From NCBI GenBank assembly GCA_021775005.1, contig JAJFIK010000075.1:11086-75085 (forward strand): a stretch of DNA of 64,000 bases. The letters run 5' to 3'. The translations under genes and the position numbers were made by a program. Shown piece after piece: positions 13,388 through 52,904 of the stretch (the stretch's first letter is position 1; each line of letters starts with the position of its first letter). The notes beneath the pieces were generated by a model. It was not told the DNA's origin and made no database searches. It saw only the letters and a list, made by a program, of their open reading frames with translations. The stretch comes from Rhodospirillales bacterium. Lineage in GTDB: Bacteria > Pseudomonadota > Alphaproteobacteria > JAJFIK01.

Positions 13388-14917
13388 TCAGTCCATTACA
13401 ATGCCATGCTCAAGCGCGAGCAACGCCAATGCGGGACGAGCATTTACGCCGGTTTTCCTATAGATTTTCTGGATGTGATGGTCGGCGGTTTTGGGCGAGA
13501 TGTTCAATACTTCTGCAATTTGCGCTGTCGATTCAGACATCGCCAGCCGGGCTAATACTTGAACCTCACGCCGCGTCAGATCAAATGGATAGGCCGCCAT
13601 GACGTCCTTGACCTTGTGGCCAGCCGCTTGCAAGACGGCAGTCACGGCGGCAGGTAGGAATTTTTTATCGACCGCAGCAGCCGTCATCCGTTTTGCGGCT
13701 TCTTTGGGATCCAGCGCCTTGCTTGCGGGAGTGGAATTTGTCAGCTCATCATATTCGTTTGCGACGGCCAGAATGTTGCAGGCCAAGTCCGGTAATGCCA
13801 CGCGGCGATGATAGCCACTGCCGTCCGCACGTTCCTGCACGCAAGATGCAATTCGTGACCAAGCGGCAAATGGCTCACCATGAGACAGTACATACTCTGT
13901 TTGGAACGAGTGTCTTTGCATCTCAATTCGCTCTGATACGCTGAGCTCAGCGGCCTTGTACCAAATGCGGTTCGAAATCGCACATTTTCCAATGTCATGA
14001 ACTAACGCGGCGAGCCGCAAAGTCTCCACCTGATCGTTAGGAAGTCCTGCCAATTTCGCCGCCGAAGCAGTTAGGCTCGCAACCCGGCGCGAATGGCTGC
14101 GGAAGTGGCTCGCCTTGTGGTCGGTCATATCCGCACCGACCTCAGCCAGAGTCTGCCGGCAGGTTGGCGTCATTTTGATCGGCTCGCCGGGCTCGGCGGC
14201 AATAAATGACTCGAACTCTGGCGTCCTGCTTGCGGTCGCAAAAATGTCGTCAGCATGGTCCAAAAATGCCTGCCCAAGTTCGGGGTCCAACTCCACACCC
14301 CGTTTCGCCGCTACCACTTTTTTTGCTTGCTCGGCGTCTTCCAGGCGCCTGACCAACTCGGCCATCTCAGTGATCCGCACCAGGCGCGACAGAGATGGTA
14401 CGTCGGGACCGCCAAAGGGCAGTACTTTGCCGTCCCACCTGGCATAGTAATAGGGGATGCACTCAAGCACCGCCTCGGAGACTGGTAGCCGCCGGGCCAG
14501 TAAATAGGACTGCCGGCAATGGGCCGCTGTAAAATCGGGCGCAGCGCCCGGCAGGATATCGCAAATGTGGTTGAATGCTTTGTCCCTGTCTTCGGTCGTG
14601 GCATCTTGCGCGATGTACTGGCTCAAGAACTTTTTCAAATCCTCGCGGTCGGTCCAGTCGCCTAGCATGGTGGCCACAGCGAAGCCCTGATCATCGCCAA
14701 TCGATAGCAGCCCAGTTTCGTGACTGGTGATCGTGCAGCCAATAAACCTGACGGTGGCCAGAAAATATGCATCCTTTTGGGTTTGGAGATCCAAGCCTAG
14801 CTTCTTAGCAAACTCCGCAGTTACGATGGCTGCGGTTAGACCGGAACCACTGGGCCGGCCTGTGGCCATGTCAGCGGCCAAGGCCAACACGCCCAAGCCT
14901 TCAGAAATAGTCGGCAT
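13388..14917 (-). CDS. LuxR-family transcriptional regulator with two tandem degenerate HD-GYP-like domains
   Basis: The second domain has LAALVHDIGK (HD motif) and ERADGSGYHRR (HHExxDGxGYP with GYP changed to GYH). The first domain is degenerate (LALAADMATGRP; YYARWDGKVLPFGG). The C-terminal LuxR HTH reads REVQVLARLAMSESTAQIAEVLNISPKTADHHIQKIYRK. Confidence 0.7.
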   Translation of the reverse strand: MPTISEGLGVLALAADMATGRPSGSGLTAAIVTAEFAKKLGLDLQTQKDAYFLATVRFIGCTITSHETGLLSIGDDQGFAVATMLGDWTDREDLKKFLSQYIAQDATTEDRDKAFNHICDILPGAAPDFTAAHCRQSYLLARRLPVSEAVLECIPYYYARWDGKVLPFGGPDVPSLSRLVRITEMAELVRRLEDAEQAKKVVAAKRGVELDPELGQAFLDHADDIFATASRTPEFESFIAAEPGEPIKMTPTCRQTLAEVGADMTDHKASHFRSHSRRVASLTASAAKLAGLPNDQVETLRLAALVHDIGKCAISNRIWYKAAELSVSERIEMQRHSFQTEYVLSHGEPFAAWSRIASCVQERADGSGYHRRVALPDLACNILAVANEYDELTNSTPASKALDPKEAAKRMTAAAVDKKFLPAAVTAVLQAAGHKVKDVMAAYPFDLTRREVQVLARLAMSESTAQIAEVLNISPKTADHHIQKIYRKTGVNARPALALLALEHGIVMD

Positions 14918-15155: not shown

Positions 15156-17783
15156 GTGGATGTCATAGGCGACAAACTGATTTCATTGCCTGAAGGCGCG
15201 AGCGATACCGTCCCCACCAAGTATTGGGAGCGGCTGGATGATGGGCGCGTGATGTGCACCCTGTGCCCGCGCGCATGCAAAATGAAAGACGGCCAGCGCG
15301 GCCTGTGCTTTGTCCGCAAGGCGCAAGGCGGCGAAGTTGTCATGACCAGCTATGGCCGCTCATCTGGATTTTGCATCGACCCGATTGAGAAAAAGCCCCT
15401 CAACCACTTTCTGCCCGGCACGCCGGTGCTTTCCCTTGGCACCGCGGGGTGTAACCTTGCCTGCAGCTTCTGCCAAAACTGGGATATTTCCAAAGCACGG
15501 CAGATGGACCGGGTGCAGGACCTCGCCCAACCGGAAATGATTGCAAAGGCCGCCAAGGAAACCGGCTGTCGCTCAGTTGCGTTTACCTATAACGACCCGG
15601 TTATTTTCATGGAGTACGCGATTGATATCGCACAGGCCTGCCGGGAATTGGACATCAAAACGGTAGCAGTGACCGCTGGATACATGAACGATGCGCCCCG
15701 GGCTGAGTTCTTTAAGTATATGGATGCGGCGAATGTCGATCTGAAAGCCTTTACCGAGGATTTCTATTGGCGCCAAACCAAGGGCGCGCTCAAACCCGTT
15801 CTGGATACGCTCACATACCTCAAGGAGCACACCAATGTCTGGTTCGAGGTCACCACCCTTTTGATCCCGGATGAAAATGATAGCTCGAAGGAATTACGCG
15901 CACAGTGCGAATGGATGATGAAAAATCTGGGGCCCGACGTGCCGCTGCATTTTTCAGCCTTTCATCCCGATTATCGCATGCGAGATAAATCCCGCACGCC
16001 GCCCGAAACGCTTAAACGCGCCCGCGGCATCGCCCGGGAAATCGGGTTGCGCCACGTCTATACGGGCAATATCCACGATGAAGAAGGCGGCACCACCTAT
16101 TGCCACAGTTGCGCTGAGACGCTCATCGTGCGGGATTGGCATCTCATTAAACACTGGGCGTTAAGCGATGACGGCAAATGCAAAAAATGTGACACGGCCC
16201 TGGCAGGGGTGTTTGATGGCCCGCCGGGCAAGTGGGGCCGCAAGCGTACGCCCATCCGCATCGGGCCCGCTGGCGCAATGGTGGCTCAACCTGTCAGTCC
16301 GCGCACCATGGCCGCAAAGAATGCCACAAAGGAAGAGCTCAGCCGCAGCTATCAACCGATGAAGAATACCAACTACAGTATCAAGCAGCCGCAGGTGGCC
16401 GGAAAGTTCTATCCATCAGACGCGGGGACTCTGGCCAATACTGTTGACCAGCTATTGCAGTCTGCGCCGTCTCCGCAAATGCAGCCCAAGGCCATTATCG
16501 CGCCCCATGCCGGATACCAGTATTCCGGCAAGATCGCCGCGCGGGCCTTTAACAGTCTAGGCAACCGAAAGTCCGACATTCGCCGCGTGGTTTTGTTCGG
16601 CCCGCCCCACCGCAAAGCTGTGAAGGGCATTGCAGTGCCCAGCTACCAGATCTTTGCCACACCGCTTGGCCCCGTCAGCGTCGACCGCGGCGCGATTGAG
16701 AAACTCAAAGTTCTCCCATTTGTCGCCGAGGACGATAGCCCGTTCGAAAATGAACACGGGCTGGAAGTGCATCTGCCATTCCTGCAGCGCGTATTTGAAA
16801 ATGTCGAAATCGTCCCCGCCCTTGTGGGCGGAATTTCGCCGGGGCAAGCTGCCCAGGCCCTGCGCACGGTTTGGGGCGGTGATGAAACGCTGATCCTGAT
16901 CTCATCGGACCTCAGTCACTTTCACGACTACGACAAAGCCTCGAAAACGGACAATGCGGCGGCGGCGGCGATTGAAACATTACGCTCCGGCCAGTTGGGC
17001 GAAGACCAGGCCTGCGGTCGCCACGCCGTACGCGGGCTTCTGCTCGAATCCATCCATCACAATCTGCGCGCCACCACTATCGATTTGTGCAATTCAGGCG
17101 ACACTGCAGGCAACAAGGATCGCGTGGTCGGCTATGGCGCGTTTGTGTTTGAGCCTTCTGACAAGGCCCGCCTCCCGGAGGCTTCGGCCAAGGTCCTGCT
17201 GGATGTTGCCAGGCGTGTGGTCATCAAGGGCGCTGAGATCGGCGAGATGCCGAAACTCAATGTCCGCGACATGCCGCGATTGTTAATGGCATGGCGGCCA
17301 ACTTTTACCACCATCACAAATGGCGGCAAACTGCGCGGATGCTACGGCAGCTTTGTCGCGACCCAACCCTTGATCAATGACGTGGCCAAAAGTGCATACG
17401 CGGCCGCGTTTAAGGACTCCCGTTTCAAACCGATGACAATGGCGGAGCTGGCGCGGGCGGAACTGGGCCTGTCGATCCTTTCGGTCGCCTACCGCTTCCC
17501 GGTCAAGGACGAGGATGATTTGCTTGGCCAAGTGCGCCCAGGGATAGACGGACTGATTATGCGCGATGGGGGGCAACAGGGCCTGTTCTTGCCGTCGGTC
17601 TGGGAGCAGTTGAAGACCCCCGAGGCCTTTATCAAAGGCCTTAAACGTAAAGCGGGGCGGCCTGAGAATTACTGGTCAGACTCGCTGGAAATCTATCGCT
17701 TCACGGCAGAGAAAATCAGCGCTGTTCCGATTGTAACAGAGGCATTGGCACCTGCCGCTACTGTCCCTTCGGCGACAAAGTAG
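15156..17783 (+). CDS. AmmeMemoRadiSam system tri-domain fusion: radical SAM enzyme + MEMO1-like (protein B) + AMMECR1 domain
   Basis: The N-terminal part has CX3CX2C (GCNLACSFCQNW) plus an upstream Cys cluster CTLCPRACK. The middle part has the MEMO1 signature IIAPHAGYQYSG, beginning around 16359. The C-terminal part has the AMMECR1 signature GGKLRGCYGSF. The 875-aa ORF has no internal stops. Confidence 0.8.
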   Translation: MDVIGDKLISLPEGASDTVPTKYWERLDDGRVMCTLCPRACKMKDGQRGLCFVRKAQGGEVVMTSYGRSSGFCIDPIEKKPLNHFLPGTPVLSLGTAGCNLACSFCQNWDISKARQMDRVQDLAQPEMIAKAAKETGCRSVAFTYNDPVIFMEYAIDIAQACRELDIKTVAVTAGYMNDAPRAEFFKYMDAANVDLKAFTEDFYWRQTKGALKPVLDTLTYLKEHTNVWFEVTTLLIPDENDSSKELRAQCEWMMKNLGPDVPLHFSAFHPDYRMRDKSRTPPETLKRARGIAREIGLRHVYTGNIHDEEGGTTYCHSCAETLIVRDWHLIKHWALSDDGKCKKCDTALAGVFDGPPGKWGRKRTPIRIGPAGAMVAQPVSPRTMAAKNATKEELSRSYQPMKNTNYSIKQPQVAGKFYPSDAGTLANTVDQLLQSAPSPQMQPKAIIAPHAGYQYSGKIAARAFNSLGNRKSDIRRVVLFGPPHRKAVKGIAVPSYQIFATPLGPVSVDRGAIEKLKVLPFVAEDDSPFENEHGLEVHLPFLQRVFENVEIVPALVGGISPGQAAQALRTVWGGDETLILISSDLSHFHDYDKASKTDNAAAAAIETLRSGQLGEDQACGRHAVRGLLLESIHHNLRATTIDLCNSGDTAGNKDRVVGYGAFVFEPSDKARLPEASAKVLLDVARRVVIKGAEIGEMPKLNVRDMPRLLMAWRPTFTTITNGGKLRGCYGSFVATQPLINDVAKSAYAAAFKDSRFKPMTMAELARAELGLSILSVAYRFPVKDEDDLLGQVRPGIDGLIMRDGGQQGLFLPSVWEQLKTPEAFIKGLKRKAGRPENYWSDSLEIYRFTAEKISAVPIVTEALAPAATVPSATK

Positions 17784-17791
17784 GAACCGCA

Positions 17792-18241
17792 ATGGTCGAG
17801 ATTTACGTGGACGCGGATGCCTGCCCAGTAAAGGATGAGGTTGTGCGCGTGGCGGATCGATATGATCTCCCCGTTCACATGGTCTCCAACGCCTATATGC
17901 GTTTGCCACAGGGCAAGTCAGTCAGCCAGGTCATTGTGTCTGATGGCTTCGATGCCGCAGACGATTGGATTGCCGAAAACATCAAACCCAAAGACATTGC
18001 CATCACCGCCGATGTGCCGCTTGCCGCCCGCTGCGTGGAAAACGGGGCCTTTGTCATTGGGCCCACGGGCAAGGATTTCTCAAACACATCCATTGGTATG
18101 GATTTGGCCATGCGTAATCTCAATGCGCATTTGCGGGAGACCGGCGAGATCACAGGCGGAGGCGCAGCGTTCTCAAAGAAGGATCGCTCAAACTTTCTCT
18201 CGGTCTTGGATAGAATGGTCAACAAAGCCAAGCGGGCCTAA
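17792..18241 (+). CDS. YaiI/YqgV family protein (UPF0178/DUF188)
   Basis: MVEIYVDADACPVKDEVVRVADRY matches the UPF0178 N-terminus. It lies 9 nt after the AmmeMemoRadiSam gene. Confidence 0.7.
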   Translation: MVEIYVDADACPVKDEVVRVADRYDLPVHMVSNAYMRLPQGKSVSQVIVSDGFDAADDWIAENIKPKDIAITADVPLAARCVENGAFVIGPTGKDFSNTSIGMDLAMRNLNAHLRETGEITGGGAAFSKKDRSNFLSVLDRMVNKAKRA

Positions 18242-19443
18242 TCTGGGCGGCGAGATTGCCTGGGGCGAACAAGCATCGGCCCATAGCGGATTGCAAAGAG
18301 GCCAAAAGCTCCCGCCCAGGCGACAGACGACGCCGTAATCCATGTTGAATAGAGCTCCGGGGTGAAAAGACTAGCGCCAACACGGATCAATGCGGCGGCA
18401 ATCACCAGCAGATATATGGCGGCGGTCCAGGCATCTGCTTCGCGCGCCCTTCCTGTATGGCCAAGGGTTGATCGCGTCATAATGCCAAGGGTCATGACAC
18501 CGACCGCCCCCGCCGTCAGGGCGTGTATCGCCGCGCTCTCTGGCACATGGCGGGGCCAAAGCGCCGCAGAGCCCATGAGCAGGAACGACAGGACCAACCA
18601 TGCGTAACCCACATGCAAAATCCAAACGAGCGCTTCCGCCCCCGTCTGCCAGCCTTGCCAACGCAACAGCCGCATAAAGTGAAGGGTGCCTGCGATCAAC
18701 AGCAAGACCCCTGTCCACGGCGCATCGGGAGCCAGGACCCAAGCCGCCAGCGCAAGCGCTGCCGTGCCAAGGGCCAGTTGATCAAAACGACCCGCAGGCG
18801 CGGGCAAAGCCTCCGCGCCGCGCGCCGCAAGCCAATTGCGCGTGAAACTTGGCACAACGCGGCCGCCGATCACGGCGATCAAAAGCGCCGGGACAGCCAG
18901 CGCTGCATGCTCAGTGATTTCAAAAGCCCCTGAGCCGCTCGCCGTCAGGTGAAAGCAGATGTTGGCAATGGCGAGCAGCGCGGCGAGCCCGCAAACCGGA
19001 ATATTGCGGGTGTTGCCACTTGCCAGAATTTCGCGCCAGACGAGGGCGGCAAAGACCACAAGGAAGGCGCTGTCGATAACAATAGCGATCCCATGCAGCT
19101 CCGCCGGCATCAGCATGGCAACGCGTCCTGCCAGCCAAATCCCGAACAATGCAGCGAGCCGCATCCCCGAAACTGGTAGGCGTCCGGTCCAGTTCGGCAC
19201 GGCGGTCAACAGAAACCCAACGGCAATGGCCGCGAAAAACCCGAATAGCATTTCATGAATATGCCAGATCAGCGCCGCACGGCCCCCGATCATGCCTGCG
19301 CCTATGGCATAGGCATAAGCCCACGCAACAATGCTTAGCGCGGCGAATATCGATCCACCGAGAAAAAAGGGGCGAAATCCAAAACTGAAAAACGCGGGCC
19401 CGCTATAGGTACGGCGGGAGGGATCTGCATCGGCTGCCATCAC
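18238..19443 (-). CDS. NnrS family membrane protein
   Basis: About 400 aa and polytopic. The N-terminus FFSFGFRPFFLGGSIFAALSI is typical of NnrS. Confidence 0.7.
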   Translation of the reverse strand: MMAADADPSRRTYSGPAFFSFGFRPFFLGGSIFAALSIVAWAYAYAIGAGMIGGRAALIWHIHEMLFGFFAAIAVGFLLTAVPNWTGRLPVSGMRLAALFGIWLAGRVAMLMPAELHGIAIVIDSAFLVVFAALVWREILASGNTRNIPVCGLAALLAIANICFHLTASGSGAFEITEHAALAVPALLIAVIGGRVVPSFTRNWLAARGAEALPAPAGRFDQLALGTAALALAAWVLAPDAPWTGVLLLIAGTLHFMRLLRWQGWQTGAEALVWILHVGYAWLVLSFLLMGSAALWPRHVPESAAIHALTAGAVGVMTLGIMTRSTLGHTGRAREADAWTAAIYLLVIAAALIRVGASLFTPELYSTWITASSVAWAGAFGLFAIRYGPMLVRPRQSRRPD

Positions 19444-19728
19444 GAAACCTCAGGGTCAGTTGTACGGTGGCGTGGAACGGCGACGACATCGCATCAATGG
19501 AGTTCATCATTGTACCGAGGATCCGGTTCAAGCGTTCTATTGTCTTGTGATTCTCAGCCACTTTTCGGTCGCGACAGCCCTTTCTGCAGTACGGTCTCGA
19601 TGCTGCCAGCGCGGTAAACTATCGATTCATTGAGTAGTACCTAATTTTCGTATAGTACTTTTCCGTCTCCCATTGGCAAGCCATACCATTGTGTGGGTAA
19701 AATCCCTTCAAGCCGCAAGGAGCAGAAA

Positions 19729-20403
19729 ATGGATGACTACGTTGCCCGAGCGAGGGACAAGTTCCGCAGGGAACAAGTCTCACCTCATTATTCCGGGCGC
19801 CTGCACTTTGCCCTCACCTTGATCGTAACCCTTGCCGTGATTTCAGCCTCTCTGTGGTTCCTGAAAAGCCCCACATGGCTGGAATGGCTGACCGTGCCGA
19901 TCACCTTCGCCTATGCGAACCTGTCGGAATATTTTGGTCATCGCGGGCCCATGCACCACCCAACAAAGGGGCTGGGCCTGATCTACCGCCGCCACACGAT
20001 CGAACACCATTCGTTCTTTACCGACACTGAAGATACGATCGAAACGCCCGACGATTTTAAGGCCGTGATGTTCCCGCCCATCATGCTGCTCTTTTTCTTT
20101 GGCGCTTTCGCAACACCTGTGGCCGTCCTGATCTACTTCGTCTTGGGGCAGAATGTTGCGCTACTATTCGTTTTCACGTCGACAAGCTATTTTCTCATCT
20201 ACGAGCTTCTGCACCTTTGTTATCATCTGGACAAGACCTCATGGCCCGCCCGGCTGCCCTTTCTGAGCAAACTGCGCCATCATCACACGGTTCATCACAA
20301 CCGAGACCTCATGGCGGATTACAATTTCAATATTACGTTCCCGATCTGCGATGCAATCTTTGGAACGACCTACAGCCCCGATACAGCAGGCGATGAGAGC
20401 TGA
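19729..20403 (+). CDS. fatty acid hydroxylase / sterol desaturase superfamily membrane protein
   Basis: Histidine boxes HRGPMHH, HTIEHH and HHHTVHH. AAGGAG lies 6 nt upstream of ATG 19729; the ORF extends to 19693. Confidence 0.7.
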   Translation: MDDYVARARDKFRREQVSPHYSGRLHFALTLIVTLAVISASLWFLKSPTWLEWLTVPITFAYANLSEYFGHRGPMHHPTKGLGLIYRRHTIEHHSFFTDTEDTIETPDDFKAVMFPPIMLLFFFGAFATPVAVLIYFVLGQNVALLFVFTSTSYFLIYELLHLCYHLDKTSWPARLPFLSKLRHHHTVHHNRDLMADYNFNITFPICDAIFGTTYSPDTAGDES

Positions 20404-52814: not shown

Positions 52815-52904
52815 TGGCGGAGAGACAGGGATTCGAACCCTGGGAACGCTCGCGCGCTCAACGGTTTTCGAGACCGCCCCGTTCGACCACTCCGGCATCT
52901 CTCC
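52815..52904 (-). tRNA. tRNA-Ser(CGA): tRNA-Ser (anticodon CGA), class II with a long variable arm, encoded CCA
   Basis: Hand-folded. Acceptor GGAGAGA/TCTCTCC, D-arm CCG-GAGTGGTCGAA-CGG, anticodon stem GCGGT/ACCGT with loop CTCGAAA, long variable arm, T-arm CAGGG-TTCGAAT-CCCTG, discriminator G plus CCA. Confidence 0.85.

Follow-up and report, generated by a model that had tools for sequence, protein, structure and literature searches.

The gene described here lies at positions 15,156 to 17,783 on the plus strand of the window, the whole 64,000-nucleotide stretch of DNA that was analysed. It is uninterrupted and encodes an 875-aa protein made of 3 domains: a radical SAM (rSAM) domain, a Memo domain (protein B), and an AMMECR1 domain (protein A), in that order. 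The start codon is GTG, with GGGGAAAGGG just ahead of it, and the stop codon is TAG (17,781 to 17,783). The product is 100% identical to an 875-aa protein deposited at NCBI (P0001). Directly downstream, on the same strand, is a YaiI/YqxD (DUF188) gene of 149 aa (17,792 to 18,241); upstream, and divergent, is a gene for a regulator with HD_5 (HD-GYP-type) and GerE/LuxR domains (13,388 to 14,917, minus strand).

Family models account for the protein from one end to the other. In NCBIfam, the rSAM segment (aa 21-369) matches TIGR04337, AmmeMemoSam_rS, over the full model (1-349) with 636.7 bits and an E-value of 7.6e-192, against a cut-off of 220. The B segment (aa 410-665) matches TIGR04336, AmmeMemoSam_B (234.9 bits, E 9.9e-70, cut-off 26), and the A segment (aa 680-853) matches TIGR04335, AmmeMemoSam_A (165.8 bits, E 6e-49, cut-off 99). 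The Pfam models Radical_SAM, Memo (PF01875, 159.3 bits), and AMMECR1 (PF01871, 127.5 bits) are passed as well. A preliminary description had read rSAM, MEMO1, and AMMECR1 parts in one 875-aa ORF; these searches bear it out, and the motifs it quoted are in place: GCNLACSFCQNW at aa 98-109, IIAPHAGYQYSG at aa 447-458, and GGKLRGCYGSF at about aa 723-733. The hallmark of AmmeMemoRadiSam, that the 3 components are encoded together, thus takes the form of a single ORF. Judged by alignment, the predicted catalytic residues of all 3 domains are intact; they are invariant in 22 rSAM-B-A proteins, and nearly so in some 190-230 domains drawn from all architectures.

The rSAM domain is PflA-like and spans positions 15,216 to 16,262 (plus strand). 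Its canonical CX3CX2C motif for a [4Fe-4S] cluster and SAM (C99, C103, and C106; 15,447 to 15,482) is invariant in 22/22 rSAM-B-A proteins and present in almost all of 192 rSAM domains. Upstream of it lies the extra cysteine cluster that had been noticed at the outset, C34-x2-C37-x3-C41-x9-C51 (15,255 to 15,308), to which C73 (15,372 to 15,374) can be added. Whatever the architecture, every aligned sequence keeps the cluster, apart from truncated ones that have gaps there; it is a candidate auxiliary metal or Fe-S site. A further invariant set, CxxC-x22-CxxC (C316, C319, C342, and C345; 16,101 to 16,190), forms zinc-ribbon-like hairpins near the C-terminal end of the domain, with beta hairpins at aa 322-334 in the predicted structure. 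The closest characterised families are the activases of glycyl-radical enzymes (GREs): PFLA at 2.3e-13, followed by PFLE_PFLC, YjjW, and NrdG. The fold, too, matches PflA (3c8f and 3cb8; Foldseek TM 0.66-0.70). Assignment to PflA itself was rejected: the equivalog model TIGR02493 scores 50.1 bits against a cut-off of 231.75, as in a related but separate family.

The Memo domain (16,383 to 17,150, plus strand) can be aligned over its whole length with human MEMO1 (3bcz; E 1.4e-45, Foldseek TM 0.76), a member of the PCAD-Memo superfamily. The residues of its metal site, H451, H485, D585, H588, and C620, are invariant and align with PHAGY, GPSH, SSDFCH, and ICG of 3bcz. The AMMECR1 domain (17,193 to 17,714, plus strand) superimposes on 1vaj with a TM of 0.82 and an rmsd of 1.8 A (Foldseek). 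Its motifs, L-R727-G-C729-x-G731, where x is Y, and D754-S-R756-F757, are invariant; they follow the RGChG and DxRa definitions of PMC2034487.

Two linkers of different character join the domains. Linker 1 (aa 370-409; 16,263 to 16,382, plus strand) is predicted to be disordered, with pLDDT below 50 for aa 378-400, and across 22 homologues it varies in length and sequence, always in frame. Linker 2 (aa 666-679; 17,151 to 17,192, plus strand) is short, and in the AF2 model B, linker 2, and A all have a pLDDT above 90. In the model, then, B-A behaves as a rigid unit to which the rSAM domain is flexibly tethered; the model gives no docking of rSAM on B-A, because linker 1 is disordered and pTM is 0.56. 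Among 80 related loci, 29 have an rSAM gene with neither an A nor a B gene in the fetched flanks, some of these being on short contigs, so tight coupling of rSAM, A, and B is not universal. Given these loci and the modelled tether, the earlier argument for an obligate 1:1:1 complex is plausible, but overstated.

One conserved feature of the Memo domain lies outside its metal site. In the last strand is an unexplained motif, R656-V-V-G659-Y660 (17,121 to 17,135, plus strand). Across about 225 B domains, G, Y, and V658 are 100% conserved, V657 97%, and R about 83%. The GRE fingerprint, in full RVxG[FWY]x6-8[FL]x4Qx2[IV]x2R (PMC13450708), opens with the pattern RVxG[FWY]. Of 227 B-domain proteins, 182 have this opening pattern, at a single fixed position, compared with 2% of shuffles. 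At this site human MEMO1, unlike prokaryotic B domains, has SSVSY.

Among its relatives the gene stands as a self-contained unit. When neighbouring ORFs of the 80 loci were clustered, no ORF family recurred in more than 10 of them, and the leading clusters either reflect local synteny or consist of high-GC shadow ORFs. The GerE/LuxR domain of the divergent upstream gene, reported earlier as a putative c-di-GMP-responsive LuxR regulator, is confirmed; at the 80 loci, this HD_5 and GerE/LuxR regulator is not conserved beside the AmmeMemoRadiSam system. The downstream gene is a clear YaiI (PF02639, 152.8 bits; NF001095, 183.7 bits with a cut-off of 139). A promoter scan of the locus found no match to the sigma-70 consensus; terminator-like sites are about as frequent as chance would give, every one of them on the minus strand and none on the plus strand, and both scans are uninformative. 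A mobile element or insertion was considered and rejected, there being no notable flanking repeats, composition anomaly, or nearby RNA element.

How might such a protein work? The PflA-like rSAM domain would bind a [4Fe-4S] cluster at C99, C103, and C106 and cleave SAM, with the 5'-deoxyadenosyl radical so formed removing one hydrogen atom. Two further active sites would come from the rigid B-A module, namely the metal centre (His/Asp/Cys) in Memo and, in AMMECR1, the cleft cysteine C729. There the same substrate would undergo subsequent redox or group-transfer chemistry, and the rSAM domain would reach these sites through a flexible tether of about 30-40 residues. Eukaryotes have Memo and AMMECR1 but are not known to have this rSAM partner; since the eukaryotic proteins work without rSAM, the chemistry of B-A may not need radical initiation. 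The cleft cysteine of RGChG and a role in RNA modification were put forward by Balaji and Aravind in 2007 (PMC2034487), and following them we tentatively favour a nucleotide or RNA base as the substrate, with a small metabolite, for example an isoprenoid, a little behind. The preliminary description held that no biochemical function had been assigned to the 3 partners; the searchable literature agrees, as we found in it neither a biochemical activity of the prokaryotic three-component system nor an experiment on any member.

A different use of the radical is suggested by the RVVGY motif. Here the rSAM domain would abstract hydrogen from Gly659 of Memo, and the radical would be relayed to C620 or C729 within a fold unlike that of GREs, so that the tri-fusions would activate themselves. 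The proposal gains from the kinship of the rSAM domain with GRE activases in both sequence and structure, from the fixed placement of RVxG[FWY] with its fully conserved Gly and Tyr, and from the SSVSY of human MEMO1, a protein that goes without rSAM; because MEMO1 has SSVSY there, Gly659 is dispensable for the fold. In rSAM-A-B fusions, moreover, the motif lies 10-12 residues before the C-terminus, and covalent fusion would suit self-activation. Several observations nevertheless make this reading very unlikely. [quoted passage not shown] In the model, the motif sits in a confidently predicted core beta strand (aa 657-667), not in a finger loop. Aerobic Planctomycetes and marine Alphaproteobacteria are among the hosts, and oxygen destroys glycyl radicals (PMC13450708); the same review of GREs mentions neither Memo nor AMMECR1. 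Finally, the likeness was spotted post hoc and comprises 4 fixed residues only.

Less likely again is that YaiI was recruited in the source lineage as a fourth component, perhaps nuclease-like, in an echo of the archaeal pairing of AMMECR1 with a PIN RNase. The 2 genes share a strand, an AGGA overlaps the stop codon of the fusion, and no terminator-like site separates them; YaiI is probably co-transcribed with the fused gene in the source genome. The preliminary description, which proposed YaiI as a possible fourth operon member, was right to place it directly downstream, although the gap measures 8 nt (17,784 to 17,791), not 9. In archaea, a PIN-fold RNase adjoins AMMECR1 genes, in the AMMECR1-NFACT-Mut7-C RNase neighbourhood (PMC4075521). 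The proposal fails, however, on co-occurrence: a YaiI homologue is absent from all 80 related loci (about 1.0 Mb), in a search whose positive control worked. Close relatives, at 84%, 79%, and 71% identity, are flanked by other genes. In 4 of the 5 contexts examined, including the nearest relative genome, orthologues of YaiI itself (85-93% identity) come after a 4HBT thioesterase gene, and in none of the 5 do they adjoin the fusion; in the MAG with the nearest tri-fusion (GCA_021774965.1) and in sample ERZ27251191, fusion and YaiI are on different contigs. A PIN-like fold also goes without support, since no structure in the PDB matches the YaiI model (pLDDT 87) at E <= 1e-3; the sole NYN-type hit, Rae1/YacP, comes 11th, with an E-value of 0.025 and an rmsd of 14 A. 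The adjacency is a recent positional accident, and YaiI is no component of the system. Least probable of all, to the point of being negligible, is that errors of assembly or sequencing produced the single ORF from separate genes. That idea draws on general possibility, the source being apparently a 91-kb draft assembly contig. Against it, the rSAM-B-A ORF is continuous in 22 clusters of independent origin (44-100% identity; 44-84% in the independent NCBI, ENA, JGI, and Logan assemblies), with linkers that are variable but in frame; standalone B-A bifusions span linker 2; and composition across the junctions is without anomaly. The frameshift of which the preliminary description had warned is thereby dismissed.

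The fusion is real, but it is not rare. Tri-fusions make up 116/120 of the best homologues when these are clustered at 90% identity, and at 50% identity they account for 25 of the leading 150 clusters, in 4 domain orders. The preliminary description took the partners to be separate as a rule, or joined in pairs at most; these counts contradict it, and JGI already names all 3 components, labelling Planctomycete tri-fusions "radical SAM enzyme/protein B/protein A". That tri-fusions prove common and already described is what the preliminary description itself had said would lower the interest. The fused gene adds one member to a class that is known and annotated in databases. Within that class, rSAM-B-A is a less common permutation, found in 22/120 of the best clusters at 90% identity and in 1/150 of the best representatives at 50%, the latter being an underestimate because the lineage of the fused gene has no full-length representative at that level (best match 617 bits). 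The source organism is a relative, at 83% identity, of the alphaproteobacterial MAG OFTM99.

Planctomycetes provide an alternative order. Their tri-fusions (about 1,060 aa), for example from the cultured genera Gimesia (G. aquarii V144x_50230), Fuerstiella (F. marisgermanici), and Roseimaritima (R. sediminicola), contain the same 3 domains and conserved residues, but in the order rSAM-A-B; in most of them, some 200 additional residues without annotation separate A from B, a spacer that the 874-aa Roseimaritima protein lacks. The commonest bacterial form is the B-A bifusion, with 81 among the same 150 representatives at 50% identity. The B and A domains described here share 40-48% identity with those of B-A bifusions, against 27-39% with B and A of Planctomycetes, and the rSAM domain of the lineage is 63-69% identical to unfused rSAMs, against 56-62% to fused Planctomycete rSAMs. 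This pattern points to independent fusion events here and in Planctomycetes, and the rSAM-A-B form looks like a fusion of its own. At 15/80 loci, including those of Stella and other Alphaproteobacteria, a fused B-A gene is divergent from an rSAM gene. The gene described here would have arisen by the joining of an rSAM gene to an already existing B-A fusion gene; this is the most likely origin on identity comparisons. Fusion of the 3 parts has occurred repeatedly, and in different orders.

On the whole, we conclude with good confidence that the gene encodes a genuine, intact, single-chain AmmeMemoRadiSam that most likely arose from rSAM and B-A, and that its neighbour YaiI is accidental; its chemistry would be of the radical kind. 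Conservation of MEMO1 and AMMECR1 extends from archaea to humans, in whom both are connected with disease. Biochemists could reasonably work with a single-chain version, yet for that purpose the fused gene at this locus offers nothing unique: public databases already hold hundreds of tri-fusions, some in cultured, genetically tractable Planctomycetes. What the locus yields is a YaiI link that can be dropped, repeated fusion in 4 orders, a picture of a rigid B-A module with a tethered rSAM domain, and a testable hypothesis about RVVGY.

Among known systems, the closest is AmmeMemoRadiSam itself, defined by TIGR04337, TIGR04336, and TIGR04335. The fused protein matches all of its models and signature residues; the system is encoded elsewhere by 2 or 3 genes, and here by one polypeptide. 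The neighbourhood of AMMECR1, rSAM, and dioxygenase genes, and fusions of A with B, were noted as early as 2007 (PMC2034487). Bacterial B-A bifusions (about 445-490 aa) align to aa ~408-856 in a single stretch that includes the B-A linker, and differ in having no covalently joined rSAM domain. Human MEMO1 (3bcz, 7kq8) and archaeal AMMECR1 (1vaj, 1zq7, 1wsc) have the same folds, metal-site residues, and RGCxG residues as the fused protein; unlike it, they stand alone. In PflA and the other GRE activases, CX3CX2C occupies the same place, close to where the core begins at its N-terminal end, whereas the rSAM domain of the fused protein adds N-terminal and C-terminal cysteine clusters and has no canonical GRE partner.

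The fused gene encodes a genuine, intact AmmeMemoRadiSam enzyme on a single chain, of a known, already annotated kind. Its uninterrupted ORF (15156..17783, + strand) begins with a GTG start codon that has GGGGAAAGGG just 5', ends with TAG, and encodes 875 aa. We searched the protein with NCBIfam hmmscan against the three models that define the system. The matches are full-length, do not overlap one another, and each exceed the cut-off: the radical SAM enzyme (rSAM; TIGR04337) at aa 21-369 (636.7 bits, cut-off 220), protein B of the Memo family (TIGR04336) at aa 410-665 (234.9 bits, cut-off 26), and protein A of the AMMECR1 family (TIGR04335) at aa 680-853 (165.8 bits, cut-off 99). Pfam is in accord, with Radical_SAM, Memo, and AMMECR1 on the same protein. 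The preliminary description had proposed three hallmark signatures in one ORF, with an extra Cys cluster upstream of the radical SAM motif; this is confirmed, far beyond chance, as all three quoted motifs are found and the cluster is present at the N-terminus.

The fusion is real. Searching 5.8 billion proteins, we found an 875-aa NCBI protein with 100% identity and 21 more clusters of 827-896 aa (44-84% identity) from NCBI, ENA, JGI, and Logan assemblies. When the three query segments are mapped onto these 22, every one has the order rSAM-B-A. In the alignment of these 22 proteins, the linkers (aa 370-409 between rSAM and B, aa 666-679 between B and A) vary in length and sequence while keeping the frame. 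Therefore, a frameshift or assembly artefact is excluded at both junctions, where the preliminary description had suggested re-sequencing or a check of read coverage. The same alignment shows the predicted catalytic residues, without exception, to be invariant or nearly so: C99/C103/C106 of the radical SAM motif; H451, H485, D585, H588, and C620 of Memo; and R727-G-C729-x-G731 and D754-x-R756-F757 of AMMECR1. Equally conserved are two Cys clusters that flank the radical SAM core: an N-terminal group, C34/C37/C41/C51/C73 (window 15255-15374), and a C-terminal CxxC-x22-CxxC, C316/C319/C342/C345 (window 16101-16190). Each is a candidate auxiliary site, Fe-S or zinc, of TIGR04337; PflA has neither.

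An AlphaFold2 model built with the 22-sequence alignment has a mean pLDDT of 82 and a pTM of 0.56. Confidence is above 90 across B, linker 2, and A, and below 50 for residues 378-400; the cluster-binding loops are also low in confidence, as expected without cofactor. Foldseek matches the B domain to MEMO1 (TM 0.76), the A domain to the AMMECR1 protein PH0010 (TM 0.82, rmsd 1.8 A), and the rSAM domain to PflA (TM 0.66-0.70), TIGR04337 itself having no solved structure; no Foldseek entry covers more than one domain. On these grounds, B-A behaves as a rigid module with rSAM on a flexible tether. A docked 1:1:1 assembly is not seen in the model.

Three intact predicted active sites are under strong constraint and have repeatedly been placed on one chain. 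No experimental work on the system was found in the searchable literature. Burroughs et al. (2019) reportedly tied Memo contexts to the modification of nucleotide bases and isoprenoids. In the mechanism that we propose, the PflA-like rSAM domain would generate a 5'-deoxyadenosyl radical that abstracts a hydrogen atom from the substrate; that same substrate would then undergo a redox or group-transfer step completed by the metal centre of Memo and the cleft cysteine of AMMECR1. We tentatively favour a nucleotide or RNA base as this substrate, with a small metabolite rated slightly lower.

A protein-radical role for the Memo domain, as in glycyl-radical enzymes (GREs), was also considered. The last strand of this domain carries R656-V-V-G659-Y660 (window 17121-17135). 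This fits RVxG[FWY], with which the glycyl-radical fingerprint begins (PMC13450708); among relatives of the partner rSAM, glycyl-radical activases come closest. In about 225 prokaryotic B domains, drawn from all architectures, V658, G659, and Y660 are conserved at 100%, V657 at 97%, and R656 at about 83%. Of 227 proteins, 182 have RVxG[FWY] at this one site, compared with 2% of shuffled sequences. In human MEMO1, which lacks an rSAM partner, the position reads SSVSY. However, the full GRE fingerprint occurs in 0 of the 227 proteins, the Memo fold differs from the GRE barrel, the motif is modelled confidently inside a core strand, and many hosts are aerobes, in which glycyl radicals do not survive. 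We consider such a role very improbable.

The preliminary description placed a DUF188/YaiI gene directly downstream, as a possible fourth operon member. The gene is there (17792..18241), although the gap is 8 nt rather than 9, and its AGGA overlaps the stop codon of the fused ORF. A convergent gene, NnrS (18238..19443, - strand; PF05940, 379 bits), shares 4 nt (18238-18241) with the 3' end of yaiI, which leaves no intergenic space for a terminator between the two transcription units. YaiI is probably co-transcribed with the fused gene, since no + strand terminator-like site is found. It is not a member of the system, and the link is incidental. We surveyed 80 loci from species-representative genomes, those nearest the query (about 1.0 Mb in total), and found a YaiI homologue in none, either with a pipeline that recovered the window's YaiI, NnrS, HD-LuxR regulator, and FA_hydroxylase-family gene (19693-20403) as positive controls or by independent tblastn. 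In relatives at 84%, 79%, and 71% identity, the tri-fusion sits amid entirely different neighbours, with a convergent gene next in each. YaiI orthologues (85-93% identity) adjoin the fusion in 0 of 5 contexts examined and follow a 4HBT/acyl-ACP thioesterase gene in 4 of 5, three of these near fixGHIS. In MAG OFTM99 (GCA_021774965.1), the nearest tri-fusion lies on contig JAJFIL010000176 and YaiI on JAJFIL010000039; sample ERZ27251191 also has them on separate contigs. In the four thioesterase-YaiI loci of close relatives (L085 5403-6367, L086 5486-6450, L087 5621-6450, and L088 1206-2035), YaiI directly follows the thioesterase gene or overlaps it by 1-4 nt; fixGHIS lies upstream in 3/4, and the opposite side has a fatty-acid desaturase gene nearby in 4/4. 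The window's genome no longer has this conserved YaiI context. A PIN-like fold for DUF188 would echo an archaeal pairing of AMMECR1 with a PIN RNase, but it found no support: although modelled with confidence (pLDDT 87), YaiI matched no PDB structure at E <= 1e-3. The archaeal gene neighbourhood has been described (PMC4075521).

With all neighbour ORFs clustered, no family occurs in more than 10 of the 80 loci, and none is credible as a partner. The predicted LuxR-type regulator divergent from the fused gene was recovered at 13388..14917 (- strand), with HD_5 (HD-GYP-type) and GerE (LuxR HTH) domains, and is not conserved beside the system in relatives. By eye, its HD signature is degenerate (VHDIGK for HHD, QERADGSGYH for HHExxDGxGYP); the regulator may be a sensor, not an active phosphodiesterase. 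A tRNA-Ser (CGA; 52815-52904, - strand) is the only RNA gene detected in the window.

The preliminary description considered the tri-fusion unusual, its partners being mostly separate or fused in pairs. This did not hold: 116 of the 120 best matches in the 5.8-billion-protein search are tri-fusions, comprising 22 rSAM-B-A, 93 rSAM-A-B (about 1,060 aa), and 1 B-A-rSAM. Cultured Gimesia aquarii, Fuerstiella marisgermanici, and Roseimaritima sediminicola have proteins in the rSAM-A-B group; JGI labels many of the group as 'AmmeMemoRadiSam system radical SAM enzyme/protein B/protein A', and Pfam upholds the order rSAM-A-B. Two Planctomycete members have about 200 residues between AMMECR1 and Memo (P0072, aa ~586-796; P0075, aa ~593-806) with no Pfam match, which could be an extra domain specific to this class. 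Of 1.84 billion representatives at 50% identity, searched exhaustively with HMMER, 24,458 matched. The top 150 hold 81 B-A bifusions, 39 rSAM alone, 3 rSAM-A (with the single A-rSAM: P0266, P0270, P0277, and P0287), 1 A-rSAM, and 1 rSAM-B; their tri-fusions are 19 rSAM-A-B, 3 B-A-rSAM, 2 A-rSAM-B, and 1 rSAM-B-A, the last count being too low because the query's lineage has no full-length member in this set. Thus, all three parts are fused in at least 4 different orders.

Among the 80 loci, tri-fusions number 3, every one rSAM-B-A. In another 15, Stella and several other Alphaproteobacteria among them, B and A are fused in a gene that diverges from rSAM; the three parts are separate ORFs in 23, and 10 have rSAM plus only A or only B nearby. 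In 29 (for example L005-L008, L015, L026, L034, L036, and L053), rSAM is alone inside the fetched flanks, up to 8 kb where contigs are long; some of these loci are short contigs. Clustering of the three genes is therefore not universal. In three Gemmatimonadota loci (L004, L010, and L012), the layout differs: an AMMECR1 gene sits directly upstream of rSAM on its strand, the two frames overlapping or adjacent, and the vicinity has no B gene. Standalone B-A proteins match query aa ~408-856 in a single stretch across linker 2, at 40-48% identity, whereas Planctomycete B and A domains share only 27-39% with the query's. For the query rSAM domain, identity is 63-69% with unfused rSAMs versus 56-62% with Planctomycete fused ones. 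On the simplest reading of these identities, which are not a tree, a radical SAM gene in an alphaproteobacterial lineage would have been joined to a B-A gene that already existed, in an event separate from the Planctomycete fusion. Tri-fusions are thus common, which the preliminary description said would lessen the interest of the locus. As early as 2007, Balaji and Aravind described the AMMECR1, radical SAM, and dioxygenase gene neighbourhood together with A-B gene fusions (PMC2034487).
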